DNA from: Bacillota bacterium
GTDB lineage: Bacteria > Bacillota_I > Bacilli_A > Izemoplasmatales > UBA1188
Direction: 5' to 3'
NCBI GenBank assembly: GCA_023410715.1
Contig: JAEYPN010000014.1
Location: 21,032-85,031, forward strand
DNA: 64,000 nucleotides
Shown here: positions 11,147 through 38,213 of the stretch, piece by piece
Layout: each line of letters opens with the position of its first letter
Numbering within the stretch: position 1 is the first letter of the stretch
Translations under genes and position numbers: made by a program
Notes under the pieces: model-generated
What the model was told of the DNA's origin: nothing
What the model saw: the letters and a program-made list of their open reading frames with translations, nothing else
The model's database searches: none

Positions 11147-11253
11147 AAAATATAAATAAATAATCTTAATAAAACGCTCAATATCAACAAAAATCTTCTA
11201 AATTGTTGAGAAATATATTAATGATATTTAAAAAGTTTAAAGGAGAAATAACT

Positions 11254-13603: not shown

Positions 13604-16600
13604 ATGAAGAAAACGAACTTTTTTTTAATGCTTATGTTTATGCTAGTATCAGTTGTTTTAATCGGTTGTACAAAGACAACAACAAGTAAAACAACAACTA
13701 GTAAAAAAACAACAGTAAGCATTACTTCGAAAGCTCCAACAACAAAGGAGCCTACAACTAAGCCTAGTACAGCAACTGTCCCAACTACACAAATTAAGGG
13801 CAATGCAGTTTTCGAAGGCGTTAGTGACGTATCTATTTCTGTCGGAACAGAATTCAGTAAAACTACAGGTGTTACTGCAAAAGATTACGACGGAACAGAC
13901 TTAACTAGTGAAATCTCTACATCAGGTTTATTTAATGCAAATAGAGCCGGTTCTTATAAAATTACGTATAAAGTAACAGGTAAAAACGGTGTTGAGGTTA
14001 TAGCCACTAGAACAATCACGGTATCAGAAAATGCCTTTATCACAACAACCAAATCATCTATTACGCTTGTAATTGGTGCAGAATTCAACCCATTAGAAGG
14101 CGTTACTGCAACAGATGGTGATGTGGATGGAACAGATATTACTGATAAAGTAACTTACTCATATTCAGAAGGCTTTGTTTTAACTGAAGCAGGTGTTGGA
14201 GAAGTTATTTATAAAGTTGTTGGTAGCAATGGACAAGAAATAATGGTTTCAATTCCAATTACAATTGTTGCCCCAGAAAAAGCTAAAATCTTCTTCGGTA
14301 CAGTTGAAGCTCCAACAGATGGTTCAGGAACTATTACTCGTACATTTGATTTTAATCCATTAGCTGGCTTAAAAGCATTTGACTATGATGGCGAAGATTT
14401 ATCAAACCATGTTGTAGTTGAAGGCCAAGTTAATAACTTTGTAGTTGGTTCTTACACTTTAGTTTATAAAGTTACAGGTAAAAATAACGAAGAAGCTAGA
14501 CTTGAAAGAACAATTGAAGTTGTTGACAGATACATTGAAATAGCAGGGAACAGATATGCTGTTGATCAAGCAAATATTAATCCAGAAAAATTAATGACAA
14601 ATCAACAAGGTCCTTCATCAGGTGTTATCACAATTTTAACTGGTATGCCAGAAGGAACAACAGGATTTGCATCTGGTTCAACACAAACATATCCAGTAGT
14701 AATCGTTTGTGACGCACAAGGTAGAATTGTTTACGCACGTGACCCATTCATGGGCGAATTCCAAATAAAAGAAGTAGTAGATCCAGAAACTTTAGAAGTA
14801 AGTTATGTTGGTGAACCAATTAGAACATTTAAGATTGGTGCAACTCCAGAAGAAACTTTAGCAAATTTCAATAAAGACGTTTCAGCTGGTGGCGGAACTG
14901 GTTTCGGTCAAACAACAATCTTTAAAGACATTGCTAACTTTATTCCAGAAGGTGGATTTATAATCGTTTGTCCTTACAGCCAAAATGCTGATAGTAATTA
15001 TGGCGAAAACCATCCAGTAAGAAAATTCGGTCTTGACATGGGTCGTAGAATTGGCGCATTAGTAAGAATTGTTGGACTTGAAATTCCTGGATATACACAA
15101 AAAGACTTAAATGAATTAATCTTATTTGAAGGTGTTGAAGATGAATATTTATTAACAGGTACTGAATTTGATGCAATGGCTAATGTTAAAGCATTTAGAG
15201 GCGAAGACGAAGCTACAGTAGTTGCAGTTAAATCAACAGTGGATGTTACAACTCCTGGTAAATATTATGTTATCTATAAAGCAACAATAGGCAATGAATA
15301 TGTATATTATACAAGAAGAGTAGTTGTTGAAGATACTTTAACAGATGCAAGAATTGAAGGAACAGATCAAAAGATTTTCTTAAATAAAGTTACAGATTTA
15401 AGAAGCCTTGTAAAAGCATTTGAATTCACAAGAGAATTAATTAACTATAAATTAGAAATTGAAGATGGTGGATTCGATTTTACTAAAGAAGGCGAATACG
15501 TTGTTACATATAAAGTAACTGGCCAAAGCGGCGTTCAAGTTACTAAAACAATTATGTTAACTGTATCATCAGAACCAACAATCAATTTAAGAAATGAAGA
15601 AGTGACAATAGATCAAGGCCAAGCATTTGATGCAGCATTTGGTACATCAGCTATTGATTATAATGGTAATATTATAACAGTAACTGTTTCAGAATATGAT
15701 GTTAATCAAATTGGCGAACAAACAATTATTATTACTGCAGTTGGTGCATTAAAAACAGCAACTAAAGAAATTAAATTAACAGTTTTAGGCCCAAAACCAG
15801 TACTTGAATTTACTGATTCAGCAAATGTAGTTATCAATACTGAATTTGATGCTTTAAAATTTGTAGTTTTAAGCAAAGACCATAATGGTATAGAATTAAC
15901 ACCAACATGGGTTATTGAAAAACTTAATGGTGAAGTTTGGGAATTAGTTGAAAACATTGATACAACAGTTCTTGGCTCTTACCGTGTAACTTATAAATTA
16001 GTTGGTGAATATCAAGAAGTTGTATCAACTTTAAATGTTGAAGTTATAGATCCAAATCCAAGTATTGTTGGTGTTAAATCACAAGCAGTTATCAAAGGTA
16101 CAGAATTTACTGCATTAACAGGCGTAAAAGCATTTGATGCTTTTGGAGTTGAATTAGCAGCTGAAAAATTACTAGTTAAAATTAAATTAATTAGTGAAGT
16201 TGAAGGTGTTGAAACATTAACAGAAGTAAGTGCAATCGATGTAAATAATATTGGAACATACGTTGTAACATATACAGCAGTTGATGGTGAATATCAAGTA
16301 CAAAAGGTTGCAAGAATTAGCATTATTGAAGAACCAACTCATTCAATGTTCTATGTTGATGGTGTTGCAATGTTAGATCGCTATAATGTTTATGAAAATA
16401 TTACAAATGATGTATTAGAAGAAACAATGACTAATGCCGTAAATGCTTCACTTGAAAAATATGGCGAAGCTGGCGTTTCTACAACTATTCTTCAAGAATT
16501 AGGTTATTCAATTTTCGTTTATGATAATATGGAAGATGTTCCAACAACAATTAATTACATTGGTGGTGCATCAGCAGGTGTACAAATCTTCTCAATGATG

Positions 16601-17011
16601 TTTATCATCGATGCTCAAGGTAATGTACGTTTTGCAAGAAGTTACTCAAAACCAACTATTAATGGTAAAGCAAATAACTCTGTTGACCAAATTGAAAGAG
16701 GCGTTAAAGAAGAATTCTCAACACCTACAGTATACAATGCAAATACTTGTGAATTTGGTGCATTAATGAACAATATTATTGTTAATGGTACAAAAGTATT
16801 AACAAAAGCTGGTGCAGAACAAGGTATAGTAGCTTCTGCATGGACACTTCAAGAGGGCGAAAAATTAGTTGTTATTGGTGGTCACGGCGGAACAGCTGGT
16901 TGGGCTGCAAACTGGTTTAGAACATTAAGTACTGATCCACTTGCTCAAAGCGTGTTCTCATTAAATTCAAATGTTCAATATTTTGAAGTTGAAGCGAATT
17001 CTGCAGAATAA
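13604..17011 (+). CDS. Large surface lipoprotein with about 8 Ig-like (DUF5011-type by eye) repeats and two copies of an unassigned ~200-aa domain
   Basis: Lipobox LIGC, then a T/S/K-rich linker. Repeats of the form GV.A.D.DG.DLT......(G.Y.VTYKV.G.NG). AGGAGG RBS. Confidence 0.85.
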   Translation: MKKTNFFLMLMFMLVSVVLIGCTKTTTSKTTTSKKTTVSITSKAPTTKEPTTKPSTATVPTTQIKGNAVFEGVSDVSISVGTEFSKTTGVTAKDYDGTDLTSEISTSGLFNANRAGSYKITYKVTGKNGVEVIATRTITVSENAFITTTKSSITLVIGAEFNPLEGVTATDGDVDGTDITDKVTYSYSEGFVLTEAGVGEVIYKVVGSNGQEIMVSIPITIVAPEKAKIFFGTVEAPTDGSGTITRTFDFNPLAGLKAFDYDGEDLSNHVVVEGQVNNFVVGSYTLVYKVTGKNNEEARLERTIEVVDRYIEIAGNRYAVDQANINPEKLMTNQQGPSSGVITILTGMPEGTTGFASGSTQTYPVVIVCDAQGRIVYARDPFMGEFQIKEVVDPETLEVSYVGEPIRTFKIGATPEETLANFNKDVSAGGGTGFGQTTIFKDIANFIPEGGFIIVCPYSQNADSNYGENHPVRKFGLDMGRRIGALVRIVGLEIPGYTQKDLNELILFEGVEDEYLLTGTEFDAMANVKAFRGEDEATVVAVKSTVDVTTPGKYYVIYKATIGNEYVYYTRRVVVEDTLTDARIEGTDQKIFLNKVTDLRSLVKAFEFTRELINYKLEIEDGGFDFTKEGEYVVTYKVTGQSGVQVTKTIMLTVSSEPTINLRNEEVTIDQGQAFDAAFGTSAIDYNGNIITVTVSEYDVNQIGEQTIIITAVGALKTATKEIKLTVLGPKPVLEFTDSANVVINTEFDALKFVVLSKDHNGIELTPTWVIEKLNGEVWELVENIDTTVLGSYRVTYKLVGEYQEVVSTLNVEVIDPNPSIVGVKSQAVIKGTEFTALTGVKAFDAFGVELAAEKLLVKIKLISEVEGVETLTEVSAIDVNNIGTYVVTYTAVDGEYQVQKVARISIIEEPTHSMFYVDGVAMLDRYNVYENITNDVLEETMTNAVNASLEKYGEAGVSTTILQELGYSIFVYDNMEDVPTTINYIGGASAGVQIFSMMFIIDAQGNVRFARSYSKPTINGKANNSVDQIERGVKEEFSTPTVYNANTCEFGALMNNIIVNGTKVLTKAGAEQGIVASAWTLQEGEKLVVIGGHGGTAGWAANWFRTLSTDPLAQSVFSLNSNVQYFEVEANSAE

Positions 17012-17032
17012 TTAAAAAAGAGAGGATAAAAT

Positions 17033-18688
17033 ATGAAAAAAATATTTACGTTTCTATCGCTTATAGTTTTATCGGCATTGTTAGTTGCTTGCGGTACAAA
17101 AACAACAGCTTCTACTAGTAAAACTACAAAAAGCACTAATCCTGCAATAACAAGACCAAGTAGTTCAAAAGAAGGATCAATTACAACAGCTAAATCAACA
17201 ATTCAAAATACAACAAAGCCAATTAACACTACTCAACCATCAACTGATGTTGAGGAAGAATTTGTTTGTAACGTTGACCGTAGCGGTATTGATGAGAAAG
17301 ATTTAATTGAAATTGATTACTTTGCAACAGACGATGAATATGTCGAAGTAAGAATGGCATGTGCTTACATGCAAGAACATCCAAACGTAGTTATTGAAAA
17401 TCGTTATGATATTAAAGCTGACGCACAAGCAGCAGGTAAAGAATATACATCATACTTAGTAGAATTAGCTTCTACAACAGGATATATTCCTGATCTTATG
17501 CAATTATCAAATTTAATCAGTGCTGCTAAAGGTAAATTATTATATGACTATTCAAATGAATATAATAATGATCCAGATACTGAACATTTATTTGAATCTG
17601 CAAAAACTTTAGGTGTATATAATGGCAAACGTTTAGGTATGGCCAACGGTCAAGCTATTCGTGGTGTTATGTTAAATAAGACTTTACTAGAAAAATATAA
17701 TTTTAATTTAAGAAATTATGGATTTAACTCACGTACAGGAGAAATCTGGACTGTTGATGACATGATTAAATTAGCTCGTGATTTTACAACAGCAGCTCGT
17801 ACAGCAGAAGGTAATAAATATTATTATGGTGTTGATGGTGAATATAATCAACTAGGATTTGATTTATATTTCCCTTCAGTATACAGCGATAAATTAACTT
17901 ACTGGGGTGTTGATAAAACAACAGGCTTAATTGACTTTACAAGTGAAAATTCAAAATATATCGAAGTATATCAAAAAGAAATTGATTTACTAAAAGAAGG
18001 TACACGTCCAAATCTTACAGCTGCAGAAGCTGCTGAAGAATTCGGAGCTGCTGTTTCAGCTGAAACATTATTCTTCGAACTTGGTAGAACTTTAATGTAT
18101 CATTCATTTACATATAACTTTTTCATGCTTCAAGAAGTAGAAGATTATGAAATTCAATTTTTACCTCTACCTAGTATTAAAGAAGAGGGTGTAACTAACA
18201 AAACATTTGGTGAAACTGGACCTATGGGATTGTCAGCAAAACTTAAAGATGACCCTGTAAAAGCTGCAGTTGTTTATGATTTTGCTAAATATGTTACATG
18301 GGGTGAAGAAGGCTTCTTAAAAAGAATTGAAATTAACCTTGAACAAGGAACAATTCTTCCTAAATTCCCAGTTTCAGATTTTGAAACAGTATGGAATAGA
18401 ATTAGAGAAATATATACTGACTCTGAAAGTGCTTATTACATCGAAGGATTTGATGTAGTTATCGATAACTTATTAAATGGTTCAGTAGAACTTGGTTTAG
18501 TTAAATATCATCCAGGAATTGCTACATTTAAAGCAAAATTAACAAACTTAGCAGACTTAAATAAGAAAAAAGTTTTAGCTGGTGAATTAACTGTTGCAGA
18601 AATGGCAAAGATTTGGCAAGATTATGCTAATAATTTAATAATTGAAGAAAAAGCCCAATTAGATAACTATACTAGTGATCCAGAATAA
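17033..18688 (+). CDS. ABC transporter substrate-binding lipoprotein (carbohydrate type, large)
   Basis: Lipobox LVACG and a T/S-rich linker. 551 aa, with the size and composition of the large LplA/YtcQ-type sugar-binding proteins. Confidence 0.8.
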   Translation: MKKIFTFLSLIVLSALLVACGTKTTASTSKTTKSTNPAITRPSSSKEGSITTAKSTIQNTTKPINTTQPSTDVEEEFVCNVDRSGIDEKDLIEIDYFATDDEYVEVRMACAYMQEHPNVVIENRYDIKADAQAAGKEYTSYLVELASTTGYIPDLMQLSNLISAAKGKLLYDYSNEYNNDPDTEHLFESAKTLGVYNGKRLGMANGQAIRGVMLNKTLLEKYNFNLRNYGFNSRTGEIWTVDDMIKLARDFTTAARTAEGNKYYYGVDGEYNQLGFDLYFPSVYSDKLTYWGVDKTTGLIDFTSENSKYIEVYQKEIDLLKEGTRPNLTAAEAAEEFGAAVSAETLFFELGRTLMYHSFTYNFFMLQEVEDYEIQFLPLPSIKEEGVTNKTFGETGPMGLSAKLKDDPVKAAVVYDFAKYVTWGEEGFLKRIEINLEQGTILPKFPVSDFETVWNRIREIYTDSESAYYIEGFDVVIDNLLNGSVELGLVKYHPGIATFKAKLTNLADLNKKKVLAGELTVAEMAKIWQDYANNLIIEEKAQLDNYTSDPE

Positions 18689-18704
18689 AAAATAATTAAG
18701 AAAT

Positions 18705-18740
18705 AGAGTTACTATTTTAGTTAGCTAAGATGGTAACTCT
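18705..18740 (+). other. Intercistronic stem-loop after the binding-protein gene
   Basis: AGAGTTAC (18705-18712) pairs with GTAACTCT (18733-18740). No strong T-run follows. Confidence 0.4.
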
Positions 18741-18760
18741 TATCTTAGTGAGAGGTTAAA

Positions 18761-21241
18761 ATGAAGAAAATATTACTAATTTTTATGTTGATCTTATCAT
18801 TTTCATTAGTTGCTTGTAAGACGACTACTACAAATGTTAAAAGTACTAATAGCAGTTTAAATACAACATCTAGCATGACAAAAAAGAGTGAAACAACAAA
18901 AGAGAATACAACTCTTACCTCATCTTTGGAAGAAATCATTAGAAATAATGAGATATATGATGGAAGAGATTTATCTGAAATATTAGGTATAACTCATGTA
19001 AGTGGTAGGTATTATCTCACTAAAAAAGATTTTTTAAATGAAGGCGTTGATCAAATCGAAGCTTTAGGTGTTAAAACTGTTAAACTTTGGTTAAGTAGAA
19101 CACCTGGCGATTCTTACTTTTTTAATTCAAAATGGCCAACTGCTGGTAAAACAAACATTGCAATTGATAGTAAATATCCAGATAATTGGAACCTCTTAGA
19201 TGAGTATAAAGATAAAAACTTTTATTCTTTAATTGATATGCTCAAGATATCTTATTTTCAAGATGCTTTATCAAAAGATAGAAGTTTTACGACTTACGTA
19301 TTTGAAACAATGGAATTCATTACACCAAACTGGAAAAACGGCTTTACAACTGAAGAGGTTGAAGCTGTTAAAAAAGAATTGAGAGATTTTACAGTTTATT
19401 TAATGACCTCACAAAAAGGTACTGGTCGCACTTTCTTGCTTCAAAACTGGGAAGGCGATAATGCTTTAAATATGGATGAAATTACTGACTATAATGCAGG
19501 AACGACTGCGATTGAGGGCATGATTGCCTGGATGAACGCAAGACAAGATGGGATTAATGAAGGTAAAAATTATGTTTTATCAATGGACCCAGAAAACGAT
19601 GTTAAAGTATATGGCGTTCTTGAAATGAACCAAGTTAACGACTATAATTCAAGTGTTGAACAGTTTAAGTATCGGACAGTAGTTGATTATGTTGTTCCAT
19701 ACACACATATGGATTTATATTCTTTATCAACATGGGGAAGTAGACTTCCTGGTGAGGAAAAATCACTTTTAGGTAAACTTGACCATATTGCTGATAAAGC
19801 ACCAGATAGTGAAGCTTTTGGTGACAAAAATGTGATGCTTGGAGAGTTTGGTGCTTATCAATCGACTTATGAGAAGGCTTCAAACAATTATTCTCAGTAT
19901 TTAGGTGATTCAGCCGCAGGACAATATATGGCAAATCGTAAGCAAATTGAGTATGCCTTAGAGTGGGGTATTCAGTATGTGCTTTATTGGGAATTATATT
20001 GTAATGGCTATAAGAATAATATTGATTGTAGAAAAGCAGAACTTGGTTGTCATGTTATAGATGATTCAGGACAGCTGGTTGCTGACTATGAATCGCTTGA
20101 AGGTGTATGGTTGATTGATTCAAATGGAGACTATACCCCAACATATTATTACTTTAGAAATTTATTTAAAAAAGAATATATTTCCGATGAATTAAAGGAT
20201 GCATCAAACGTTTATGGATATTCTTCTGGTTTAACATTTGTTAAATCATATAGCTATACAACTTTAGATGATTCATTTGTTATTAATAAAGGAAGTAAAA
20301 CGGAATCATTAATCTATAAAGTTAATGGAAGAATCATGGAAGCCTCAGCAAAAGTATTTTACTCAAAAGAGATAAAAAATAGAATTAGATTTTATGTTTC
20401 TAAAAATAACGTGGATTATATAGAGGTTAAAACAAAATTTGTTGCATCACCTTATGATGAGTATGGTGTTTTATCAGGATATATAATGCTTGATGAGGAA
20501 ATTTTAGAGGATTATGTTTATCTAAAAATTGAAATCGATGGTAAAACAAGCGATGATTTCCAAGTAGGTGGAGTTGTAGCTAGTGGAGTTTCTTTTGAAT
20601 TTCAAGACGACATAAGTGGCTTTAAAACATTAGAATTAAATGGTTCTAAGACAATTACGCTTGATAAACAAGAATCTAAAATATTGAGTTACCGTTTTGA
20701 CCGAGTTAAAAACTTAACTTTAGGTTTATATGTTAAAACAAATGATATTTCTTCTTTTGATGTTAATAACTATTTAACTATTGCCTCAGTAAATGACACA
20801 AAAGTAGAAGAATTATTAATTAATATATCAAGTATAAAAATTAAAAATGATTTATATTACGTAACAGTAAAGATGACCGAGTTACCAGAAAAGTTTTCAG
20901 AATATATTGAAATTGAAGTAAATGAATCATGTTTTGAAAAGGTATATTTAGATTATTTAATCTTATCTAATGAATTTATTAGAAAGATTGAGCTTACTGG
21001 TATTTCTCAAAACGATTGTTTTGAAGAAGTAGAAATTGCCTTAAATTGGTATAAACCTAAATCAATTGATAAAAAATTTGGAATCGGTAGTACAATTACG
21101 AATTTTGATATTACTAAAAAAATTGATTTTTTATTAAATGATCCTTATGTTACATACTCATCTAAAGAAATTTCAAATGGAATTATGTATACTTGTGATT
21201 ATGGAACATATAAGAAAACGTTTAAATTTACATCAAAATAA
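18761..21241 (+). CDS. Surface lipoprotein: clan-GH-A-like catalytic-type domain plus ~350-aa C-terminal beta-rich region
   Basis: Lipobox LVAC and a T/S-rich linker. Motifs LQNWEGDN, MLGEFGAY and YWELYCNG are collinear with 12294-13277. Confidence 0.6.
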   Translation: MKKILLIFMLILSFSLVACKTTTTNVKSTNSSLNTTSSMTKKSETTKENTTLTSSLEEIIRNNEIYDGRDLSEILGITHVSGRYYLTKKDFLNEGVDQIEALGVKTVKLWLSRTPGDSYFFNSKWPTAGKTNIAIDSKYPDNWNLLDEYKDKNFYSLIDMLKISYFQDALSKDRSFTTYVFETMEFITPNWKNGFTTEEVEAVKKELRDFTVYLMTSQKGTGRTFLLQNWEGDNALNMDEITDYNAGTTAIEGMIAWMNARQDGINEGKNYVLSMDPENDVKVYGVLEMNQVNDYNSSVEQFKYRTVVDYVVPYTHMDLYSLSTWGSRLPGEEKSLLGKLDHIADKAPDSEAFGDKNVMLGEFGAYQSTYEKASNNYSQYLGDSAAGQYMANRKQIEYALEWGIQYVLYWELYCNGYKNNIDCRKAELGCHVIDDSGQLVADYESLEGVWLIDSNGDYTPTYYYFRNLFKKEYISDELKDASNVYGYSSGLTFVKSYSYTTLDDSFVINKGSKTESLIYKVNGRIMEASAKVFYSKEIKNRIRFYVSKNNVDYIEVKTKFVASPYDEYGVLSGYIMLDEEILEDYVYLKIEIDGKTSDDFQVGGVVASGVSFEFQDDISGFKTLELNGSKTITLDKQESKILSYRFDRVKNLTLGLYVKTNDISSFDVNNYLTIASVNDTKVEELLINISSIKIKNDLYYVTVKMTELPEKFSEYIEIEVNESCFEKVYLDYLILSNEFIRKIELTGISQNDCFEEVEIALNWYKPKSIDKKFGIGSTITNFDITKKIDFLLNDPYVTYSSKEISNGIMYTCDYGTYKKTFKFTSK

Positions 21242-21254: not shown

Positions 21255-22640
21255 ATGAAAAATTACGATGTAGTTATAGTTGGTGGAGGTATTTCTGGCG
21301 TTATGGCGGGAGTTCAAGCAGCGCTAGAAAACGCGAAAACCTTAATAATTGAAAGATTTAGTTCGCTTGGTGGAATGCTTACAAATGGTGGCGTAAATCC
21401 TATGATGACATTTCATGCTGGCGAAAAACAAGTTGTCCAAGGATTACCAGAAGAATTAATTAAAAGATTAGTTAAAAGAGGTAAATCAGTTGGTCATGTT
21501 TTTGACACTACTACTTATACCTACACAGTAACTCCTTTTGACCCTGAAGGAATGAAACAAGAATTAGAAATGATGGCTTTAGAAGCTGGTTGTGATATTT
21601 TATATAATACGATGCTTTTAAAGACGTTTGTTTCAGAAAAAAAACTAACAAAAATTCAAGTATTAAATAAAAGTGGTATCACAGACATTTATTCCAAAGT
21701 GTTTATTGACGCTACTGGAGATGCGGATTTATCTTATCAAGCTGGGGTTAAAACCCAGCTTGGTAGAGTTAGTGATAATAAAATGCAACCACTAACTATG
21801 AATATGCGAATGGCTAATGTTGATATTGATCAACTTAGAAACTATATAAAAACACATTTAGAACGTTTCCCTAAATATAATAATGATCCAAGTATAATTG
21901 ATAAAGCTTGTAAATTATCATTTAGCGGGTTTGAAAAAGAAATAAATCAAGCGATTGTAGATAAAAGGTTATCGTTCTTAAGAGAGTGCGTCTTGTTATT
22001 TGAAACAAATAATAAAAATGAAATTAATGTAAACATATCTAGAGTTAAAGATATTGATGCAACAAAGGAAGAAGAAATTACAAAAGCAATAATTGAAGGA
22101 AGAAAACAAGTAAGAGAAATAGAAGCTTTTTTAAAACAAGATATTCCTGGTTTCAAAGATAGTTATCTATTATCAAGTGGCCCAACAATTGGGGTAAGAA
22201 GCTCACGTCAAATAATTGGTGTTCATGTTTTAAATGAAAATGAACTACTAAAGCAGGATAGGTTTTATGATGTTATCTGCCATGGAGGCTATCCAATTGA
22301 CGTTCATCCTCCAGAGGGACATGATAAGTTTGTCGACTGGTCGAAAGTTAAAAGACATTTAAACTATGGGGAATATTATAGCGTTCCATATCGTTCAATA
22401 ATCAATAACGATGTAGAAAATATTATTACGGTTGGTAGATGCATATCCGCGACTTTTGAAGCTCAAGGGGCAATTCGCGTATCACCTATTAGCGCAGCGA
22501 TTGGTGAAGCTGGTGGTGCAGCCGCATCACTTATGGTTAAGTATAACCTAGAAAGAACAACTGATGTTAACTATAAAGAACTCCAAAAAGTATTAATCAA
22601 ATATAAAGCTTATTTAGAGGTGGAAGAAAATGACATATAA
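21255..22640 (+). CDS. FAD-dependent oxidoreductase (FAD_oxidored/GIDA-like fold), paralogue 1
   Basis: The ATG at 21255 follows AAGAGGG; the ORF-track extension back to 21138 overlaps the upstream gene. YDVVIVGGGISGVMAG dinucleotide motif. C-terminal GRCIS..QGAIRVSPISAAIGEAGGAAAS. Confidence 0.85.
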   Translation: MKNYDVVIVGGGISGVMAGVQAALENAKTLIIERFSSLGGMLTNGGVNPMMTFHAGEKQVVQGLPEELIKRLVKRGKSVGHVFDTTTYTYTVTPFDPEGMKQELEMMALEAGCDILYNTMLLKTFVSEKKLTKIQVLNKSGITDIYSKVFIDATGDADLSYQAGVKTQLGRVSDNKMQPLTMNMRMANVDIDQLRNYIKTHLERFPKYNNDPSIIDKACKLSFSGFEKEINQAIVDKRLSFLRECVLLFETNNKNEINVNISRVKDIDATKEEEITKAIIEGRKQVREIEAFLKQDIPGFKDSYLLSSGPTIGVRSSRQIIGVHVLNENELLKQDRFYDVICHGGYPIDVHPPEGHDKFVDWSKVKRHLNYGEYYSVPYRSIINNDVENIITVGRCISATFEAQGAIRVSPISAAIGEAGGAAASLMVKYNLERTTDVNYKELQKVLIKYKAYLEVEENDI

Positions 22641-23988
22641 TAAAAAGATTGAAGTAAACAAAAATTATGACGTAATTGTTGTCGGTGGGGGAACATCAGG
22701 TGTTATCGCAGCTATATCAGCAGCTAAAGAAGGTATGAAGGTTTTAATTCTTGAAGAATTATCATCTCTTGGTGGTACACAAACTAATGCGCTTGTAACT
22801 CCAATCATGGGTGCAAGAGTAAATGGTGCGACAGCTCATGGCAGTATTTCTTATGAAATCAATGAAATGTATCAAGAAATTGATGGACATTTATCAGATT
22901 CATCAACAAGCTTAACTTATTTTTTCCCAATGACAATGAAAATTGTCTATGCAAGAATCATTGAAAAATATGGAATTGATGTTTTGTACAATGCAAAATT
23001 TGTTGACGCAATAAAAAAAGATGATGAGATTGATTATTTAGTCGTAGCGTTAAAACTTGGATTACAAGGTTTTAAGGCACAAGCTTATATTGATACAACA
23101 GGTGATGCTTTAGTAGCTTTATCATTAGGTGCTGCAAACGTCATGGTTTATGAAGAAACCGGTCGTAATCAAGCTGTATCATTAAGATTTGAATTAAATA
23201 ATGTTGACTTAGATAAAACAGGAAAAATGATGGAAGAGTTAGGGCAACCATATAGACTTAAATATCCATTCTTAAGTTTAGGACGTCAATATATTGCGCC
23301 ACTTCTAGAAGAAGGCGTAAAAAATGGCGATTTATTACCTTTAGATTTATCTCATTTTCAAGCTTTCTCTATGCCTGGAAAAGTTAATACTTTATGTTTT
23401 AACTGTCCTGAATTAGGTGTGTTAGATAATGTTTTTGATGATTTTGAAATGTCAAAAAAAGTTAATTATGGTTATGAAGCAGTTTTAAGAATGGCAACAT
23501 TTGTTCGTAAATATTTTAAAGGTTGCGAAGATGCGACTGTGTCTAATATTGCTTCAATGGTTGGGGTTAGACAAAGTGTAGCGTTAGATGCATTATATAC
23601 ATTGACCATTGAAGAAGTATTTGCCTATAAAAAGTTTAATGATGGTATAGCATTTTCAAACTATCCAGTAGATATTCATGGCGCTAAAGAAATGAAACTA
23701 GAATATGATTTAAGTCTTCCTATTTCAGAAAGATATTATGAGATTCCTTTTAGAACTTTAATTCCTAAGACTATTAATAACTTAATTGTTGCTGGTCGTT
23801 CAAGTGGATTTGATTTTGGAGCTCAATCATCAGCTCGTGTTCAACACACTTGTCGTGCAATGGGAGAAGCAGCAGGAATCGGGGCATCATTAATGGTTAA
23901 AAACAATCTTAACAATAAAGAAATTAATGGTGAAGAGGTTAGAAAAATTATTTTAACAAGAGGAGGCGATTTTCCTGAAAACGCATAG
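22630..23988 (+). CDS. FAD-dependent oxidoreductase, paralogue 2
   Basis: YDVIVVGGGTSGVIAA; C-terminal GRSSG..SSARVQHTCRAMGEAAGIGAS. 11-nt overlap with paralogue 1. Confidence 0.85.
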   Translation: MTYNKKIEVNKNYDVIVVGGGTSGVIAAISAAKEGMKVLILEELSSLGGTQTNALVTPIMGARVNGATAHGSISYEINEMYQEIDGHLSDSSTSLTYFFPMTMKIVYARIIEKYGIDVLYNAKFVDAIKKDDEIDYLVVALKLGLQGFKAQAYIDTTGDALVALSLGAANVMVYEETGRNQAVSLRFELNNVDLDKTGKMMEELGQPYRLKYPFLSLGRQYIAPLLEEGVKNGDLLPLDLSHFQAFSMPGKVNTLCFNCPELGVLDNVFDDFEMSKKVNYGYEAVLRMATFVRKYFKGCEDATVSNIASMVGVRQSVALDALYTLTIEEVFAYKKFNDGIAFSNYPVDIHGAKEMKLEYDLSLPISERYYEIPFRTLIPKTINNLIVAGRSSGFDFGAQSSARVQHTCRAMGEAAGIGASLMVKNNLNNKEINGEEVRKIILTRGGDFPENA

Positions 23989-25309
23989 TATCAACCGCGA
24001 GGTTAATTTAAACGAAGAGTATGAAGTAATTGTAGTCGGCGGTGGACCATCAGGGGTCGCTGCATCCATATCTTGTGCAAGACAAGGAAAAAAAGTTTTG
24101 CTTATTGAAGCATCAGGCTCTTTAGGTGGAATGGCCACAATTGGCCTAGTTCCTGCTTGGTGTCCTTTTTCTGACAAAGAAAAAATTATTTATAAAAGTA
24201 TTGCTGAAGAAATTTTTAACTTGGCTAAAGAAGGAGTTCCTTTCGTTGATCCAAAACGTCTTGACTGGGTACCAATTAATAAGGAACAGTTTAAACTTGT
24301 TTGTGATAAATTAGTCATGAATAGTAACGTTGATGTATTATTTAATACATTTGTTACTGGTGTTGACTTAACTGATGAAAGAAATATTGATTGCTTATAC
24401 ACTGCATCAAAAAAAGGTCTAGAAGCATATAAAGCTAAAGTATACGTTGATGCTTCCGCTGATGCTGACTTAGTATATTTTGCTGGTGGTTCTTTCTTGA
24501 AAAATGAAGGAAATCAATCAGCTACTCATTGTTTTATCTTAAGTAATATTGACATAGAAGCATATAAAGCTTATGGCATAATGCATAATGACAATAAAAA
24601 TTGTTTTATTCATGATATTGTTAAAGATCCTAAGTATCCCAACATTGATTCAAGTCATTTCTGCAACAACATCATTGGTCCTGGTACACTTGGGTTTAAT
24701 GCTGGACATATTCTAGAGGTTAATCCGCTAGACCCTAAATCTATTTCTAAAGCCTTAATGGAAGGACGTATTAAAGCGCATGAGTATTCAATGGCTTTAA
24801 AAGAATACTATCCTCAAGCTTTTAAAGATAATTATTTAGTCGAGACCGCTCCAGCACTTGGTATTAGAGATTCAAGAAGAATCGAAGGAGATTATGTTCT
24901 AACAGTTGAGGATTATGAAGCTAGAAGAACATTTGAAGATGAAATAGGTCGTAATTCATATTATATCGACATTCATAGAACCGTTAAGGAAATGGAACTT
25001 GAAAAAGAAGGCTTAATTCCTAAACCATATGAAGAGGTTCATCGATATGGTAAAGGCGAATCACACGGTATTCCTTATCGTTCACTTGTACCAAAAAGTC
25101 TAGATAACGTTGTTGTATGTGGTAGATCAATTTCTACCGATCGCGCTGTTCAAGGTTCTGTAAGAGTTATGCCAACATGCTTTGTAACCGGAGAAGCTGC
25201 TGGATTAGCTGCCGCAGTAGCGCTTGAAAATGAAAGTATTAATATGCATAAAATTGATGTAGAAAAACTAAGAAAAATCTTGATAGAACGTGGAGCGTAT
25301 ATCAAGTAG
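23975..25309 (+). CDS. FAD-dependent oxidoreductase, paralogue 3 (probable non-canonical CTG start)
   Basis: The ORF track starts at TTG 24098, which removes the YEVIVVGGGPSGVAAS dinucleotide motif encoded at 24020-24067 in the same frame. The frame is open from 23957 and contains no ATG, GTG or TTG. CTG at 23975 lies 8 nt after AGGAGG (23961-23966). Confidence 0.7.
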   Translation: MKTHSINREVNLNEEYEVIVVGGGPSGVAASISCARQGKKVLLIEASGSLGGMATIGLVPAWCPFSDKEKIIYKSIAEEIFNLAKEGVPFVDPKRLDWVPINKEQFKLVCDKLVMNSNVDVLFNTFVTGVDLTDERNIDCLYTASKKGLEAYKAKVYVDASADADLVYFAGGSFLKNEGNQSATHCFILSNIDIEAYKAYGIMHNDNKNCFIHDIVKDPKYPNIDSSHFCNNIIGPGTLGFNAGHILEVNPLDPKSISKALMEGRIKAHEYSMALKEYYPQAFKDNYLVETAPALGIRDSRRIEGDYVLTVEDYEARRTFEDEIGRNSYYIDIHRTVKEMELEKEGLIPKPYEEVHRYGKGESHGIPYRSLVPKSLDNVVVCGRSISTDRAVQGSVRVMPTCFVTGEAAGLAAAVALENESINMHKIDVEKLRKILIERGAYIK

Positions 25310-25318
25310 GAGGTAAAT

Positions 25319-28318
25319 ATGAAATCCTTTATTCACAAACATAAAAAGATTACATCCTGGTTATGTGTTGTGCTTGCGTTGACTTTATTTTTTATCGTTA
25401 GAGGTCTTGTGGCCAAAGAAAAAGTTGATGAGTTATCATATCATACGCCATATTACAAAAACGATAATATTTTGGAACCAAGTTATAGTGAATATTTGCG
25501 AAGCTTAACGTCAAAAGCTTCTGGAACAACAAATAAAACAGTTAATTATAAAGACTTTGTGTTTAATAATAATCTAGAAGTTATTGACGATGAAGCAGTT
25601 AAAATAAATAACAAAGAACAACTTAAGGTAAAGTTTTCTAATTATCAGGCAGGAATGTATAATCTATCTATAAATTTCATGTATGATGGTAATGATATTT
25701 TACCTATCAAACTTGCAATTTTAGTTAATGGCGAATATCTATATTATGAATTAAGATCAGTTAATCTACCAATTAAATGGCAGGTTAAGGATTCATATAA
25801 AAAGATAGGTGCTATTCAAAATGAATTTAATTTTTCAAGTGACCGTTATGGGAATGACCTACAACCAAACACCGAAATTATTAGTGAATTTAAGGATACT
25901 TATGTTTATGATAGTAGCTATTACCATATTAATCCTTTAATGTTTTATTTAGATGGTGAAGAAATTGAATTTACTATTAAATCACTATCAGATAACATTA
26001 TTATAAAAGATATTAGTATTCTAAAGCCTATTGAAACTATTTCTTATTCAGAGTATAAAGAAAACCAAAGCAATGTTGAATTAGCTAAAAATACTATTAC
26101 TCTTGAATCAGAATATTATTCATATAAGAGTGATCCATCAACAAAGCTTTCAAGTGATACTAATGCTAATTCAACTCCATATAAAACAAGTAAAAAATTC
26201 CTAAATTCCATTGATTCAGCAACCTTCAATTCACCAGGACAAAGCATTTCTTGGGAATTTAATGTGCCAGAATCAGGTTATTATTATTTAACATTTAAGT
26301 ACATTCAAAATACAAATTTAGATATGCCAGCATTTAGAGAAATATTAGTGGATGATGAGTTATTGTTTAAAGAACTTCAGGATTATTCTTTTCAATACAC
26401 AAGCAATTGGAAAAATGAAACCATTAATATTGATGGCGAAAATGTAGCTTTTTATTTTTCTAAAGGAACCCACAGCATTAGTTTAAGAGTTAGTATAGAA
26501 AAATATAGGGAAGTTATTGAGTCTTTACAAAGTGTAATTAGGGATATTAATGATTTAGCTTTAGATATAAAAAAATATACCGCAGGTACTTCAACTGATG
26601 CGGACAGAGATTATTCAATGCTTGATGTAATTCCTGATTTAGTGGAACAATTAACGAAAATGAGGAATACCATTGATAATGCTTATCGTTATGCTAATTC
26701 ATTAAATGATAGCGAGTATGTATCAACAGATTTAAATAGCTTAAAGTTATCAATTGAAACACTAGATGAATTTATTGAAGATCCTAACACAATTGCTACA
26801 GAATTAAGCAAGTTTTCTGAAGGATCATCTTCTATATCACAATACTTAAGCACTCAAATTTTAGACCTTACAACATCACCACTAGGGTTAGAAAAAATTT
26901 ATTTAAATAATGATAGTAAATTACCAAAAGCCAAAGCTAGTGGTTTTAGAACATTCTTTGAAGAAATTAAGAAATTTTTCTTGTCATTTAAAAACAATGA
27001 ATATAACGATCTAGAAAATGATAGTGAAGCAATTAACGTTTGGGTTAACCGTCCAAGAGTTTATGTTGAGTTAATGCAACAAATGATTGATGAAGGTTTT
27101 ACTAAAGAAACAGGAATTAAAGTAAAACTATCATTAATGCCAAGTACAAATAAACTTGTTCTAGCAAACGCAGCCGGTCGTCAACCAGATCTGGCGATGG
27201 GTGTGGGATCATCAACGACATTTGAATTTGCGTTAAGAGAAGCTGCCGTCGATTTTAGACAGTTTGAAGGTTATGAAGAGATTGTTAAAAACTTTTCAAA
27301 AGGTGTAATGATTCCATACGTTTATAATGATGGCGTTTATGGCTTGCCAGAAGTTCAAAGCTTTTATTTAACATTTTATCGCACCGATATTTTAAATAAA
27401 TTATCACTTGGTGATAGTATTCCAAATACGTGGGATGATGTTAAAGCTATTTTACCGGAGTTACAAAATTATGGTATGAACTATTATATACCACTAGCAT
27501 CAGATACAGCATATAAGAGTTTTTCCTTTACTTTACCTTTCTATTATCAAAATAGAGCAGGCCTTTACTCAGCTGATGGTACAAAGACCGTTATTGATTC
27601 TGAAGAAGGTATTAAGGCAATGAAACTTATGACGGAGTTATTTACAACTTACGCCTTACAAGCACAAGTATCAAGCTTTTACAATCATTTCCGTTATGGA
27701 ACAATTCCAATTGGTATTTCAAGTAACGATACTTATGTTAAGTTATTAATTGCTGCTCCAGAAATCAAAAATAACTGGTCAATTGCTTTATATCCTGGCG
27801 TTCAAGATGAAACAACAGGTGAAATTTTACGCTATGCCCCTGTATCATCTTCAGGTGTAATGATGTTTAAAACTGATCGTGATCAAAATAAAGTATTTGA
27901 ATTTGTTAAATGGTGGTTTAAAACCGAAGTTCAAGAACAATTTGCGTTTGATCTTCAAACTATGTATGGTAAGGAATTTATTTGGTTTACCTCAAATAGA
28001 GAAGCTTTCAAAACTTTATCTATTCCGGAAGAACATAAAGATATTATTTTAAATCAATGGGACTGGGCAGCTGAAGCTCCTAGTGTTCCTGGCTCATATA
28101 TGTTAGAAAGAGAAATCTCAAACTCATGGAACAAAATTGCGTTAAACAACCAAAATATTCGGGATACGCTAGAAACTGCTGTTATAACAGTTAATCGCGA
28201 GTTAGAGCGAAAATTAGAAGAATTTAAATATATTAAAGATGGAATAAAAGTTAAGGACTATATAATTCCAACAGCTGATAATATTGATTATTGGCTGAAG
28301 GAAAGAAAGGGTGATTAA
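25319..28318 (+). CDS. Membrane-anchored 999-aa protein: two CBM-like beta-sandwich modules, a helical linker and a C-terminal ABC sugar-binding (family 1 SBP) domain
   Basis: N-terminal TM anchor [14 protein letters not shown] with no lipobox. The two modules contain [13 protein letters not shown] and [12 protein letters not shown]. The SBP-like part starts at about [31 protein letters not shown]. Confidence 0.75.
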
Positions 28319-29273
28319 TGTGGAAGATGTAAAACAAACTAATTTTTTCTATAATCTAAAAGAAAAATTGACTAAATCAAAAACATTAAAAGGTGCTTCT
28401 CCTCTTTCAATAATCGCCTTTTTAGGACCATACTATGTTTTATTCTTTATTTTTATTGTTTTAAGTGTTGGGGCTGCCATTTATTTATCATTTACTTATT
28501 TTAATACAATTCAAGTTCCATCATTTGTTGGATTTAAAAACTATGTTAACATCCTAACTAAGGATGCAATATTTATGCAAAATGTTTTACCAAACACGCT
28601 TAAATTTGCTATCTGTGTAGGACCTGGTGGATATTTACTAGGATTCTTCTTAGCATGGAGTTTGGCACAAGTAACTCATAAAATTAGAACCGTTATGGCA
28701 ATTGTTATTTATTCACCATCAATGGTTTCAGGTGTTACAATGGCAGTTATTTGGAAAGTATTTTTTAGTGGTGATGTGACTGGTTATTTAAATAATTTTT
28801 TAATTAATCTAGGGTTGATTGAAAACCCGGTTCAGTGGTTACAGTCAACAAAATATTTAATGCTCATTATGATTATCGTATCTTTATGGGGATCGATGGG
28901 CGTTGGATTCTTAGCGATGTTATCAGGTATTTTGAATATTAATCAGGAAATCTTTGAAGCTGCGTATATTGATGGAATCAAGAACAAAGCTCAAGAAATT
29001 TTCTATGTAACTATTCCTTCAATGAAACCACAGATGTTATTTGGGGCCGTTATGGCGATTGTAAGTACGTTTAAATCCGGGGCCATTGGAGTGCAACTAT
29101 CAGGCTCTAACCCAACGCCACAATATGCTGGACAATTAATTATCAATCATATTGATGATTATGGCTTTATTAGATATGAAATGGGTTATGCCGCTGCCTT
29201 ATCAGTTGTTTTACTTTTAATAATCTTAGTATTTTCTAAAGTAGCAACAAAGTATTTAACAGAAAGGGATTAG
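28311..29273 (+). CDS. Carbohydrate ABC transporter permease (CUT1, MalF/LplB-like)
   Basis: Six TM segments. EAA loop [25 protein letters not shown]. The start is GTG 28311 or GTG 28320. Confidence 0.9.
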
Positions 29274-30152
29274 GTGAGATATATGGCTAATTTTAAAGGT
29301 ACAAAAATAAATCCATCACACTTCTCACTTTCACAAGTCAAATTTTTACTTTATTTAATACCTATTTGTCTTTTTATGGCTTTACCAATTATTTATATTT
29401 TAAATAACGCCTTTAAACCAGCAGATGAACTATTTGCTTATCCGCCAAAGTTTTTTGTTATTAAACCAACACTTAGGAACTTTACTAACCTATTTCGACA
29501 ATCATCTTCATCAGGTGTGCCTTTTACTAGATATTTATTTAATACAATAGTTACTACAATATTAGGTGTGACACTTACTCTTATTATGACAGCGATGACA
29601 GGATTTGGTTTATCAAAACTAAACTTTAGAGGAAAAAAGGCCTTATTTAAAATAAATCAAATGGCATTAATGTTTGTACCAATTGCCGTAACAATTCCTC
29701 GTTTTATTATAATTACGAAAATTGGTTTTTACAATAGCTTTTGGGCGCAGATAATTCCTGCACTTGCAATGCCGGTTGGTTTATTCTTAATTAAACAAAA
29801 TGTCGATCAAGTTCCAAATGAACTTATAGAAGCAGCTAAAATGGATGGAGCAACTGATTTTCAAGTTTTCTTTAAAATTGTTATTCCTATTATTAAACCA
29901 GCTTTAGCAACTGTCGCAATTCTTGCTTTCCAAGAATTCTGGAATAGTGAAACAGCGTCAAACTTATATATTGATAGTGAATCGAAAAAAACTTTAGCAT
30001 TCTTCTTATCAACAATTTCTGCCGGAAGTACTGTGGCAGGGAAAGGAATGGAAGCGGCCGCAACATTTATTATGTTTGTTCCTAACTTAATTATTTTTGT
30101 TTTGATTCAAAATAAGGTTATGGATACAATGGCTCATTCTGGTATTAAGTAA
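29274..30152 (+). CDS. Carbohydrate ABC transporter permease (CUT1, MalG/LplC-like)
   Basis: EAA loop EAAKMDGATDFQVFFKIVIPIIKP. The start is GTG 29274 or ATG 29283. Confidence 0.9.
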   Translation: MRYMANFKGTKINPSHFSLSQVKFLLYLIPICLFMALPIIYILNNAFKPADELFAYPPKFFVIKPTLRNFTNLFRQSSSSGVPFTRYLFNTIVTTILGVTLTLIMTAMTGFGLSKLNFRGKKALFKINQMALMFVPIAVTIPRFIIITKIGFYNSFWAQIIPALAMPVGLFLIKQNVDQVPNELIEAAKMDGATDFQVFFKIVIPIIKPALATVAILAFQEFWNSETASNLYIDSESKKTLAFFLSTISAGSTVAGKGMEAAATFIMFVPNLIIFVLIQNKVMDTMAHSGIK

Positions 30153-30153: not shown

Positions 30154-32184
30154 ATGAAAAAGTTTAAAAGAATATTAATTGTCTTACTAGCAGGACTCAT
30201 TCTTGGATTTAATTTAACTGTAAAGGCTGAAAGTGGGGTACCATATACTACTTATACTGAAGATTCAAGGGGAAGATTAATTCCAACTCAGGATGCGTAT
30301 ATTGCTTTAAGTGTTTATAATGACTTCTTAGGAGAGAAGTTATCTGAACCAAGTGATATTTTCTTAGATAAAAATGATACTTTATATATTGCGGATGCCG
30401 GAAATAAACGAATCCTAATTATTGAAAAAGGCATCACGAATGTAAGAAGCATCAGATATGAAAAATTTATTAAGCCAACTGGTGTTTATGTTACGGATAA
30501 CTTTGATATCTACGTTGCTGATCCTAATGCCAAAGCTGTTTTCATGTTTGATAAGGATGGAAATTTTAAACAAAAATATGAAAAGCCAACAAGCATTTTA
30601 TTTGGAACAGAAACATCATATAGTCCTCAGAAGGTTGTTGTAGATAAAAGAGGTAACTTATATATTGTAAGTAATGGTAACTATAACGGTTTAATCCAAA
30701 TTAATAAATATGGGGAATTTCTAGGATATTTTGGTGCTAATAATTCACAAATTACTATGCGTCAAAAGTTAATTAAATCAATTTTCCCTAAAGAAATTGT
30801 TAGTCAATATTTTAAAGTAATTCCTTTAACACCTTATAATGTCTCAATTGATGACGATGGTTTAATTTATACAATTACTCGTGGTACAGAAAATAACGCT
30901 ATTAGAAAGTTAAATATTGGTGGCACTAATAAAATATCAAAATTAATGCGAACATCACTTACTTTTAGTGATATTACGGTTGGACCAATTGGTAATATGT
31001 ATACAATTGACGATAACGGTATGATTTATGAATATGATACTGATGGCAATTTGCTTTTTAACTTCGGTGGAAAAGATAACATCGGTATTTATAAAGGTTT
31101 ATTAAATACTGCATCAGGAATCGTTGTCGATAAAAATTATTATATTTATGTTATTGACTCAAAAAATAATGAACTTCATGTATTTATGCCAACGGAATTT
31201 TCAACATTAGTTCATGAAGCATTAGATTTATATCAACAAGGTTTATATGTTGAATCGAAAGGACCATGGGAAAAAGTCTTAGAATACAACTATATGTTTG
31301 ATCTTGCTCATAAAGGTATTGGCCAAGCTTACTTTAAAGAAGGTAATATGGAAGAAGCGATGGAACGTTTTAAAATGATTGGCGATATGAAGGGTTATTC
31401 TAATGCGTACTGGGAAGTAAGAAATGAATGGCTAGTTAATAATTTAACAACAATCTTTATTATTATTGGCGTTTTAGTTTTAATTGGATTTATTTATTCA
31501 AAATTATTTAAAAAGAAAGTTCAAAATAAGATAAAACCATTAAAAGATAAAATCTATAATAGGCCGCTTGTTAGTGAAATAACATTTGCTTTAAAAATTA
31601 GAAAAAAACCAACTGATGTAATGCAAGATATTCAAAGAAATCGAGGAATTTCTTTGAAAACCGCAATGATTTTATATGTTTTAGCATTTATCATGATGAT
31701 CTTAAAAATCTATTTTACTGGACCTTCATTTTCTAATGCTGAAACACAGTTCATCTCGTTATTCCAGGAAATGTTTAATACAGCAGCTCCAATTGCGTTA
31801 TTTATTATCGCTAACTATATGATCGCAACAATAACTGATGGCCAAGGTAAGTTTATGCAAGTTGTAAAGGCCTCAGCTTGTTGCTTAATCCCTTATATCA
31901 TTCTAACGCCAATTGGTACGATTTTAAGTAATTTCTTAACACAAAATGAAGCTTTCATTTATCAATTAATTAACACAATAACCATTGCATGGGTATTTCT
32001 TCTAATCTTCATTATGGTTAAAGATTTACATAACTATTCGTTCTGGGGAACAATTGGTAATATATTACTGACACTATTTGCTTTTGCTGTATTTGCTGTA
32101 GCAATTTTACTATTAAATAATGTTTTAGGTAGAATTATCGACTTTGTTGGACAAATCATTAAGGAGGTGTTTGCTCGTGGCTAA
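30154..32184 (+). CDS. Fusion protein: signal peptide, six-bladed NHL-type beta-propeller, TPR-like segment, TM helix and a C-terminal Yip1-like polytopic membrane domain
   Basis: Six repeats of the type D..G.(L/I)Y(I/V).D..N..I..(F/I)...G.. (for example LYIADAGNKRILII, IYVADPNAKAVFMFDKDGNF, LYIVSNGNYNGLIQINKYGEF). TPR-like segment GIGQAYFKEGNMEEAMERF. About 6 hydrophobic helices in the last 250 aa. Confidence 0.7.
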   Translation: MKKFKRILIVLLAGLILGFNLTVKAESGVPYTTYTEDSRGRLIPTQDAYIALSVYNDFLGEKLSEPSDIFLDKNDTLYIADAGNKRILIIEKGITNVRSIRYEKFIKPTGVYVTDNFDIYVADPNAKAVFMFDKDGNFKQKYEKPTSILFGTETSYSPQKVVVDKRGNLYIVSNGNYNGLIQINKYGEFLGYFGANNSQITMRQKLIKSIFPKEIVSQYFKVIPLTPYNVSIDDDGLIYTITRGTENNAIRKLNIGGTNKISKLMRTSLTFSDITVGPIGNMYTIDDNGMIYEYDTDGNLLFNFGGKDNIGIYKGLLNTASGIVVDKNYYIYVIDSKNNELHVFMPTEFSTLVHEALDLYQQGLYVESKGPWEKVLEYNYMFDLAHKGIGQAYFKEGNMEEAMERFKMIGDMKGYSNAYWEVRNEWLVNNLTTIFIIIGVLVLIGFIYSKLFKKKVQNKIKPLKDKIYNRPLVSEITFALKIRKKPTDVMQDIQRNRGISLKTAMILYVLAFIMMILKIYFTGPSFSNAETQFISLFQEMFNTAAPIALFIIANYMIATITDGQGKFMQVVKASACCLIPYIILTPIGTILSNFLTQNEAFIYQLINTITIAWVFLLIFIMVKDLHNYSFWGTIGNILLTLFAFAVFAVAILLLNNVLGRIIDFVGQIIKEVFARG

Positions 32185-38194: not shown

Positions 38195-38213
38195 AAAACT
38201 TAGGAGGGGGAAA

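Follow-up and report, generated by a model that had tools for sequence, protein, structure and literature searches.

Why should one bacterial operon for sugar uptake carry four genes for related flavoproteins, and what could their products do? The question is raised by a stretch of 64,000 nt from contig JAEYPN010000014.1 of a Bacillota bacterium (positions 21,032 to 85,031 of the forward strand; metagenomic contig of 128 kb, ENA ERZ27268891), referred to here as the window, which has a G + C content of about 29%. Three of the genes, P1 to P3, stand in tandem and the fourth, P4, is found further downstream. P1 to P4 are genuine, intact genes of the Pfam family PF12831 (FAD_oxidored; FAD, flavin adenine dinucleotide). 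We put the chances at about even that their products are cytoplasmic, sugar-acting flavoenzymes which process what the two ATP-binding cassette (ABC) importers of the operon bring in, and we are less confident about the particular chemistry.

Family membership and integrity of the four genes

The four genes are arranged as follows (aa, amino acids).
21255..22640, + strand: P1, clade-A PF12831 flavoprotein, 461 aa, ATG start, cytoplasmic; Pfam E 1.2e-106
22630..23988, + strand: P2, clade-B PF12831 flavoprotein, 452 aa; Pfam E 6.1e-83
23975..25309, + strand: P3, clade-C PF12831 flavoprotein, 444 aa as counted from CTG 23975; Pfam E 4.5e-99
39894..41189, + strand: P4, second clade-C PF12831 flavoprotein, 431 aa, upstream of a PfkB kinase gene; Pfam E 8e-105

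A preceding sequence-only reading of the window had forecast the FAD_oxidored family for these proteins, correctly so, as all four match PF12831 from end to end. The scores of P1 to P4 are 358, 280, 333 and 352 bits at a gathering score of 27 bits, and the matches are full-length (profile positions 1–414/416 or more; residues 5–447 in P1). The N-terminal (V/I)VGGGxSGV motif named in that reading was found in all four proteins. Its core GGGxSG (VxVGGGxSGV), a glutamate at the end of strand beta-2 (E33) and the C-terminal GEA(A/G)G are common to the four paralogues and to all three clades. A longer C-terminal block had been claimed as well, of which the GEA(A/G)G part is present throughout, while the preceding G(R/K)xIS....QG(A/S)(I/V)RV part occurs in P1, P3 and P4 and is lacking in P2, which instead reads GRSSGFDFGAQSSARV (GRSSG...QSSARV).

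None of the four flavoproteins carries a signal peptide, and they are thus cytoplasmic, whereas the neighbouring proteins of 1135, 551, 826 and 587 aa have lipoprotein signals and Thr/Ser-rich linkers, and other neighbours are membrane proteins. P1 to P3 overlap or abut each other, each gene having its own ribosome-binding site, and the overlap of 11 nt reported earlier between P1 and P2 is present at 22630–22640. The P1 start at 21255 agrees with both the gene call and the starts of homologues; the longer open reading frame starting at 21138 would overlap the upstream gene.

Relatedness of the copies

Sequence comparison divides the four copies into three ancient clades, namely A (P1), B (P2) and C (P3 and P4). 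The pairwise identities are 50% for P3/P4, 32% for P1/P4, 31% for P2/P3 and 27% for P1/P2, and cross-comparison of the homologue sets yielded 24–36% between the clades. P1 and P2 had been taken as one subtype; this grouping was given up, as the two are no nearer to each other than P1 is to P4 or P2 to P3, and have separate sets of orthologues. The grouping of P3 with P4 stood: the two belong to the same clade and share the runs LGGM(A/G)TIGLV..WC.FSDKEKIIY(K/R)S on which it had been based.

The set had also been described as a fourfold amplification. This is contradicted by the depth of the three clades and by the finding that P3 and P4 are nearer to foreign orthologues (P3 to P0122, 63%; P4 to P0239, 59%) than to each other. 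A recent duplication giving rise to P3 and P4 was considered separately and is ruled out by the same identity comparisons. Homologues of P1 with 50–66% identity were found in Clostridia, Paenibacillus, Epulopiscium, Geosporobacter, Spirochaetes and Kiritimatiellales, and those of P3 reach 50–63%, with more than 5000 matches at E ≤ 1e-20. Clade B is rarer (637 matches), the best foreign relative of P2 being 59% identical, the next 50% and the following ones about 38–44%. Since P1, P2 and P3 each have many homologues, each clade is regarded as a conserved orthologous group and not as the outcome of drift after duplication. The locus thus gathers three old lineages, with neither amplification nor fresh duplication.

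In an alignment of 109 sequences, the invariant glycine motifs are common to the three clades. The polar residues that are conserved to at least 85% in each clade, and are the same in all three, are K101, N138, K139, D152, D156, Q178, N260, R315, R318, D339, Y346, D349, H351, R380, N389, R395, Q404 and R408. The copies in the window depart from this set at N138L and R318V in P2, N138S in P3 and R395K in P4. Retention of the conserved polar set but for one or two substitutions per copy argues for active enzymes with a shared mechanism, and we infer that all four copies are active and that a single catalytic mechanism serves three specificities.

Start codon of P3

From the in-frame stop at 23954–56 to the GxGxxG motif of P3, there is no ATG, GTG or TTG. 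The public gene call for P3 begins at TTG 24098 (403 aa, P0121) and thus cuts off the FAD-binding motif. Initiation at CTG 23975 is most likely, judged from the sequence, and this codon is preceded by a ribosome-binding element.
23960..23966, + strand: Shine-Dalgarno-like GAGGAGG of P3, read from the sequence, 8 nt before CTG 23975

Of the alternative starts, ATT 23969 is too near to GAGGAGG and ATC 23990 too distant. Homologues of P3 with lengths of 439–450 aa cover 98–100% of the 444-aa version. In locus L091, the orthologue (63% identity) starts with an ATG that lies three codons further down than the corresponding site, and the gene after it likewise encodes the large binding protein. The 14-nt overlap of P2 and P3 given in the sequence-only reading holds only with a start of P3 at CTG 23975.

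A fusion of P2 with P3, or a frameshift, was considered as the cause of the missing start and rejected: P2 ends where its homologues end, which excludes a fusion, and the homologues of P3 begin at the CTG. P3 could instead be a decaying gene that was silenced by loss of its start codon and whose clade-C function is supplied by P4. This would agree with a FAD motif that has no upstream ATG, GTG or TTG, with the shortened automated gene call and with the presence of a second clade-C copy, a P4-like gene taking the position of P3 in locus L092. We nevertheless regard decay as highly improbable, given that the frame is open over 444 codons, keeps all family-invariant residues except for N138S and has a strong GAGGAGG at ideal spacing from the CTG. 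In addition, P3 overlaps the stop codon of P2, an arrangement that speaks for coupled re-initiation, and at 63% identity to an intact orthologue there is no sign of relaxed constraint.

Copy number and pairing of P2 with P3

Four family copies in one locus are unusual. When 80 genome loci centred on P1-type genes were searched with tblastn over 10 kb on each side, a second copy was found in none of them. Second copies are present among the few other loci fetched, in Clostridium thermosuccinogenes (L007), in Paenibacillus sp. UNCCL117 (L004; a divergent copy of 519 aa detected by Pfam only) and in the lineage of L096–L098. To see if the P1-P2-P3 triple recurs, metagenomes were scanned for close relatives of P2; a first scan had no matches, and a profile scan of metagenomes for P2 yielded only relatives with 38–43% identity over most of the protein, as well as one short fragment at 46%.

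An adjacent pair of clade-C and clade-B genes was observed in L096 (180–2880), L097 (8526–11317) and L098 (1500–3860), where it is part of a minimal two-component/ABC sugar cluster. In L097, the two family members and one unannotated protein of 530 aa are the only candidate enzymes among the ten open reading frames scanned.

P2 and P3, of clades B and C, could form an obligate heteromer, a possibility that the sequence-only reading had raised for its subtypes. The 14-nt overlap of their frames makes translational coupling probable, the clade C–clade B pair recurs in L096–L098, and L007 has a clade-C gene together with another, divergent PF12831 gene. L096–L098, however, share 88–98% nucleotide identity and constitute one lineage, so that the recurrence amounts to a single independent case. 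Clade C occurs without a partner in L008, L091 and L093 and, up to the end of the contig, in L092; the same is true of clade B in L089, L090 and L095, and the tblastn search found no partner copy beside the P1-type genes. An obligate heteromer is therefore considered very unlikely.

Genomic context of the family

The family was found across Bacillota, Spirochaetes, Verrucomicrobia/Kiritimatiellales, Armatimonadetes and Deinococci, with thousands of matches per query. The earlier statement that it is widespread in glycan loci was confirmed in the loci inspected, in which its members stand beside carbohydrate genes for sugar ABC importers, glycoside hydrolases of family GH130, esterases, lyases and kinases. 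GH130 accompanies a family member together with GDSL esterases in L004, with a heparinase II/III-like lyase in L007 and with a sulfatase in another inspected locus. Loci with clade-B genes feature a PIG-L deacetylase together with a Gfo/Idh/MocA or enolase-family enzyme, and some loci of the family contain ROK kinases and RpiR regulators.

The PF12831 genes in other carbohydrate loci, such as L007 and L004, resemble P1 to P4 in their full-length family match, their size of ~430–460 aa, the invariant residues and their cytoplasmic products beside sugar ABC importers. They differ in copy number, since there is usually one copy and occasionally two, in contrast to three clades in tandem plus a fourth gene in the window. 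They differ also in their partners, which are GH130, lyase and sulfatase there and SASA esterases, a DUF5696 protein and a protein resembling clan GH-A enzymes here.

A cassette headed by a clade-C gene is conserved in at least two other metagenomic organisms. Its order in the window (23975–36428) is clade-C gene, binding protein of ~1000 aa, two permeases, NHL/Yip1 protein, DUF5696 protein and permeases. The same order was found in L092 (146–11462), where the cassette is headed by a P4-like gene (P0239), and in part in L091 (437–3131), where a clade-C gene is followed by the same large binding protein. The locus with the nearest relative of P1 (L006, 66%), which has no P2 or P3, keeps the order of LacI regulator, 321-aa protein, Ig-like lipoprotein, lipoprotein of 817 aa and P1.

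Structure and remote relatives

Neither a functional study of the family was found in the literature on PF12831, FAD_oxidored and flavoenzymes in glycan loci, nor a solved structure by PDB sequence and profile searches and Foldseek. What the literature did contain was limited to mentions of uncharacterised FAD-dependent oxidoreductases in xanthan loci. Within the libraries searched, the PF12831 family thus looks biochemically and structurally uncharacterised, in line with the sequence-only reading. PDB sequence searches and a profile of 19 sequences matched only the N-terminal nucleotide-binding (Rossmann-type) part, the best profile match being a geranylgeranyl reductase (3oz2, E 2e-11, residues 3–194). 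Among NCBIfam models, no family-level assignment was obtained for P1 to P4. The geranylgeranyl reductase model TIGR02032, which is the best match of P1 (40.8 bits), scores 26.6–40.8 bits over the N-terminal part only, at a cut-off of 158.8. With PF00890 (fumarate reductase / FAD_binding_2), only the first 35–40 or so residues align, which falls short of membership, and there are no GMC-family domains among the Pfam matches of P1 to P4.

An AlphaFold2 (AF2) model of P1, the one paralogue modelled, reached a mean predicted local distance difference test score (pLDDT) of 89.7 and a predicted template modelling score (pTM) of 0.91. Foldseek aligned it with two-domain flavoproteins at a probability of 1.0, yet at a template modelling (TM) score of about 0.45. 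The matches include geranylgeranyl reductase at the top, aromatic hydroxylases, FixC and sarcosine oxidase. Model and search support a two-domain flavoprotein fold for P1, consisting of a FAD domain and a substrate domain.

The archaeal and bacterial geranylgeranyl reductases (for instance Thermoplasma Ta0516, PDB 3oz2) have the two-domain fold in common with P1 to P4, as well as the domain that binds FAD and a C-terminal motif of the GD type. In contrast, only ~190 N-terminal residues align, the TM score is about 0.46–0.52 and TIGR02032 stays far below its cut-off. The substrate domain of PF12831 and its conserved set of Arg, His, Asp and Tyr residues differ as well, and the context is lipid synthesis there, whereas it is sugar uptake for P1 to P4.

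The operon

From 13604 to 42190, all genes lie on the + strand with tiny gaps or overlaps. Apart from P1 to P4, the locus comprises the following features.
11203..12297, + strand: LacI-family regulator (Pfam Peripla_BP_3/LacI), syntenic in L006
12294..13277, + strand: 327-aa cytoplasmic protein with a clan GH-A-like TIM barrel as modelled by AF2 and Foldseek, no Pfam family
13604..21241, + strand: three surface lipoproteins of 1135 aa (Ig-like domains), 551 aa and 826 aa, with lipoprotein signals and Thr/Ser-rich linkers
25319..30152, + strand: first ABC importer, 999-aa solute-binding protein and two permeases (Pfam SBP_bac_1, BPD_transp_1)
30154..34552, + strand: NHL-repeat/Yip1 membrane protein and DUF5696 protein (Pfam NHL, Yip1, DUF5696, E 4.7e-139)
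34552..36428, + strand: second ABC permease pair (Pfam BPD_transp_1)
36431..39767, + strand: two SASA-type proteins resembling carbohydrate esterases, the first a lipoprotein of 587 aa, the second cytoplasmic and of 517 aa (Pfam PF03629)
41276..42190, + strand: PfkB/ribokinase-family sugar kinase (Pfam PfkB, E 1e-23; NCBIfam matches below cut-offs)

Of the three surface lipoproteins, only the one of 1135 aa matches Pfam Bact_surface_Ig-like; this protein and the 826-aa lipoprotein are syntenic in L006. The signal peptide of the SASA-type pair is confined to the 587-aa protein. Searches against the PDB gave no match for the DUF5696 protein and the 826-aa lipoprotein. About 560 aa at the N-terminus of the 999-aa solute-binding protein (25319–27000) form an extension without a family match, and the long form is kept in L091 and L092.

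Scans of the region for promoters and terminators yielded no excess over chance. A perfect-looking hairpin, GACCAATTTATAGATTGGTC, is located at 39804–39823, after the second SASA gene and ahead of P4, and could set P4 and the PfkB gene apart as a unit of their own, although terminator-like sites are no commoner than chance.

The locus had been described as lacking classical glycoside hydrolases (GHs), which is true at the Pfam level only. The 327-aa protein has no Pfam or NCBIfam match and no family match at the sequence level, but it models as a GH-A-like (beta/alpha)8 barrel with invariant glutamates. The AF2 model has a pLDDT of 93.5, and Foldseek aligned it with enzymes of clan GH-A (GH157, GH39 PslG, GH2, GH164 and GH5) at TM scores of 0.5–0.63. 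E160 and E230 are invariant and E104 is near-invariant, with the motifs GHWEGDW, HYxEVN and FIGExG. In the model, E230 ends strand 226–231, E160 ends strand 154–161 and E104 follows strand 97–101. There are 957 representative homologues, many of which form part of multidomain proteins as long as 2097 aa. The modelled fold indicates that the protein probably represents an undescribed glycoside hydrolase family, which gives the locus at least one probable glycosidase, and several further unannotated proteins of the locus could be glycosidases too.

Proposed function and alternative chemistries

P1 to P4 would act on oligosaccharides or modified sugars imported by the two ABC importers, each clade handling a different sugar or linkage by means of a shared catalytic core. 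In the most likely chemistry, the flavin would dehydrogenate a sugar C–H next to a hydroxyl; in the resulting keto-sugar, a substituent or the glycosidic bond would be more readily eliminated or hydrolysed. The flavoenzymes may be assisted by the GH-A-like protein and by the SASA-type esterase of the cytoplasm, and phosphorylation of the sugar set free would fall to the PfkB kinase downstream. Judged from the context, flavin chemistry on sugars may reasonably be supposed to be central to the pathway, as the sequence-only reading had suggested. FAD binding, the carbohydrate substrate, the redox direction and the order of steps are all predicted for P1 to P4.

Related logic is known from other systems. 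GMC-family glycoside 3-dehydrogenases and oxidases, such as the C-glycoside 3-oxidase CarA, start oxidative glycoside cleavage. They resemble the proposal in that flavin-dependent oxidation of a sugar hydroxyl enables elimination. However, they belong to another flavoprotein family, and a xylose-isomerase-like lyase/hydratase partner was not recognised in the locus of the window. In the xanthan loci of Microbacterium and Paenarthrobacter, XutN is a predicted FAD-dependent oxidoreductase beside an ABC importer, for which the authors propose a role in assimilating unusual sugars (bioRxiv 10.64898/2026.04.20.719765; PMC12772297). Likened by description only, XutN too is a flavoprotein that is uncharacterised and accompanies an importer of the sugar ABC type, while host phylum and glycan locus differ.

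Several observations weigh against sugar-acting dehydrogenases as described above. Since no family member has a demonstrated substrate and no solved structure was found, the chemistry is proposed by analogy only. The remote relatives that match best, the geranylgeranyl reductases, act by reducing C=C bonds. No electron-transfer flavoprotein (Etf), ferredoxin or cytochrome genes were seen in the operon of the window or in the other loci with listed genes, and many hosts of the family are, judged from their taxonomic names, presumably anaerobes. The two together make a simple oxidase or dehydrogenase awkward. The context of clade A points elsewhere in part. Among 31 genome loci, 13 have a gene for a DctM-like transporter (~431 aa) next to the P1 orthologue, together with one for a hydantoinase-A/oxoprolinase-like protein (~715 aa). 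Loci of this type (L002, L011, L017, L019–L023, L030, L033, L049, L052) often contain ROK and RpiR genes and look like a distinct conserved module. Because these P1 orthologues adjoin genes for a hydantoinase-A-like ATPase and a DctM-like transporter and not glycan genes, the substrate of clade A is perhaps a small molecule; the clade may act on a small imported sugar derivative or other molecule, not on an oligosaccharide.

Two other chemistries were weighed against dehydrogenation. P1 to P4 could be flavin-dependent reductases, which saturate C=C bonds, for example in unsaturated sugars derived from lyase action or elimination, or reduce a keto-sugar with a diffusible reductant. This would suit the closest remote relatives by hidden Markov model (HMM) and fold, which are geranylgeranyl reductases (3oz2, the top Foldseek match, and TIGR02032 for P1). 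It would also suit the frequency of the family in lineages taken as anaerobic, the lack of an encoded oxidase-type partner and the heparinase II/III-like lyases that adjoin family members in several loci. However, the similarity is limited to the FAD-binding half (40.8 bits at a cut-off of 158.8, TM score about 0.46), generic two-domain flavoproteins of many activities score nearly as well, and no polysaccharide lyase is recognisable by Pfam in the locus of the window, for which reasons we consider a reductase role unlikely.

Distinctly less probable still, in our estimate, is a redox-neutral, flavin-assisted cleavage of glycosides or substituents, in which FAD oxidises the sugar transiently, elimination and addition of water follow, and the reduced flavin restores the product. 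The flavoenzymes would then assume part of the cytoplasmic cleavage that is usually done by glycoside hydrolases, and such enzymes are indeed scarce in the operon, the GH-A-like 327-aa protein being the only one despite two importers. The lack of electron-transfer partner genes in the inspected loci, the presence of the family in lineages taken as strict anaerobes and the minimal cluster in L097, where hardly anything looks like an enzyme apart from the two family members and one unannotated protein, would fit as well. The logic has a precedent in GH4 and GH109, NAD-dependent redox glycosidases that proceed by transient oxidation followed by elimination and are redox-neutral in net terms. The analogy is possible at the level of mechanism only, as GH4 and GH109 have another cofactor and fold and no sequence relationship to PF12831, and we know of no FAD-based precedent for such cleavage. 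Against it, the GH-A-like enzyme, the DUF5696 protein and the three unannotated surface proteins could perform ordinary hydrolysis, and family members co-occur with normal GH130 and GH94 enzymes and lyases. In its widest form, the idea would make PF12831 a large, overlooked class of cytoplasmic carbohydrate-active flavoenzymes using net redox-neutral oxidation, three specificities of which dismantle an imported esterified oligosaccharide here with little help from conventional GHs; we treat this form as a long shot.

P1 to P4 add new members to a family that is known but unstudied, and their arrangement is unusually rich; any unusual chemistry is a proposal. Should they prove to be sugar dehydrogenases of an ordinary kind, better annotation would be gained and not new biology. 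For experiments, the locus offers good access to an enzyme family that is large and uncharacterised, and it is a compact test bed for the action of PF12831 on sugars, as three clades stand beside importers, esterases and a kinase, and expression of this one locus could assign functions to three orthologous groups together. The analysis also corrects the truncated public gene call for P3 by means of the CTG start and flags two other unannotated pieces of the pathway, which are the GH-A-like family without a Pfam model and the cassette of clade-C gene, large binding protein, Yip1 and DUF5696.

Other genes in the window

Just outside the operon, at 43821–45589, a GDSL esterase gene overlaps a gene for an HI0933-like flavoprotein by 4 nt, which makes a further pair of esterase and flavoprotein, distinct from those of the operon. 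Upstream of the locus, a CotH-kinase-domain protein of 621 aa is encoded at 9157–11022, and at 534–2514 the gene of a sigma-70-family factor precedes that of a 485-aa bacterial serpin. The window also features Mur ligase and DnaE genes.

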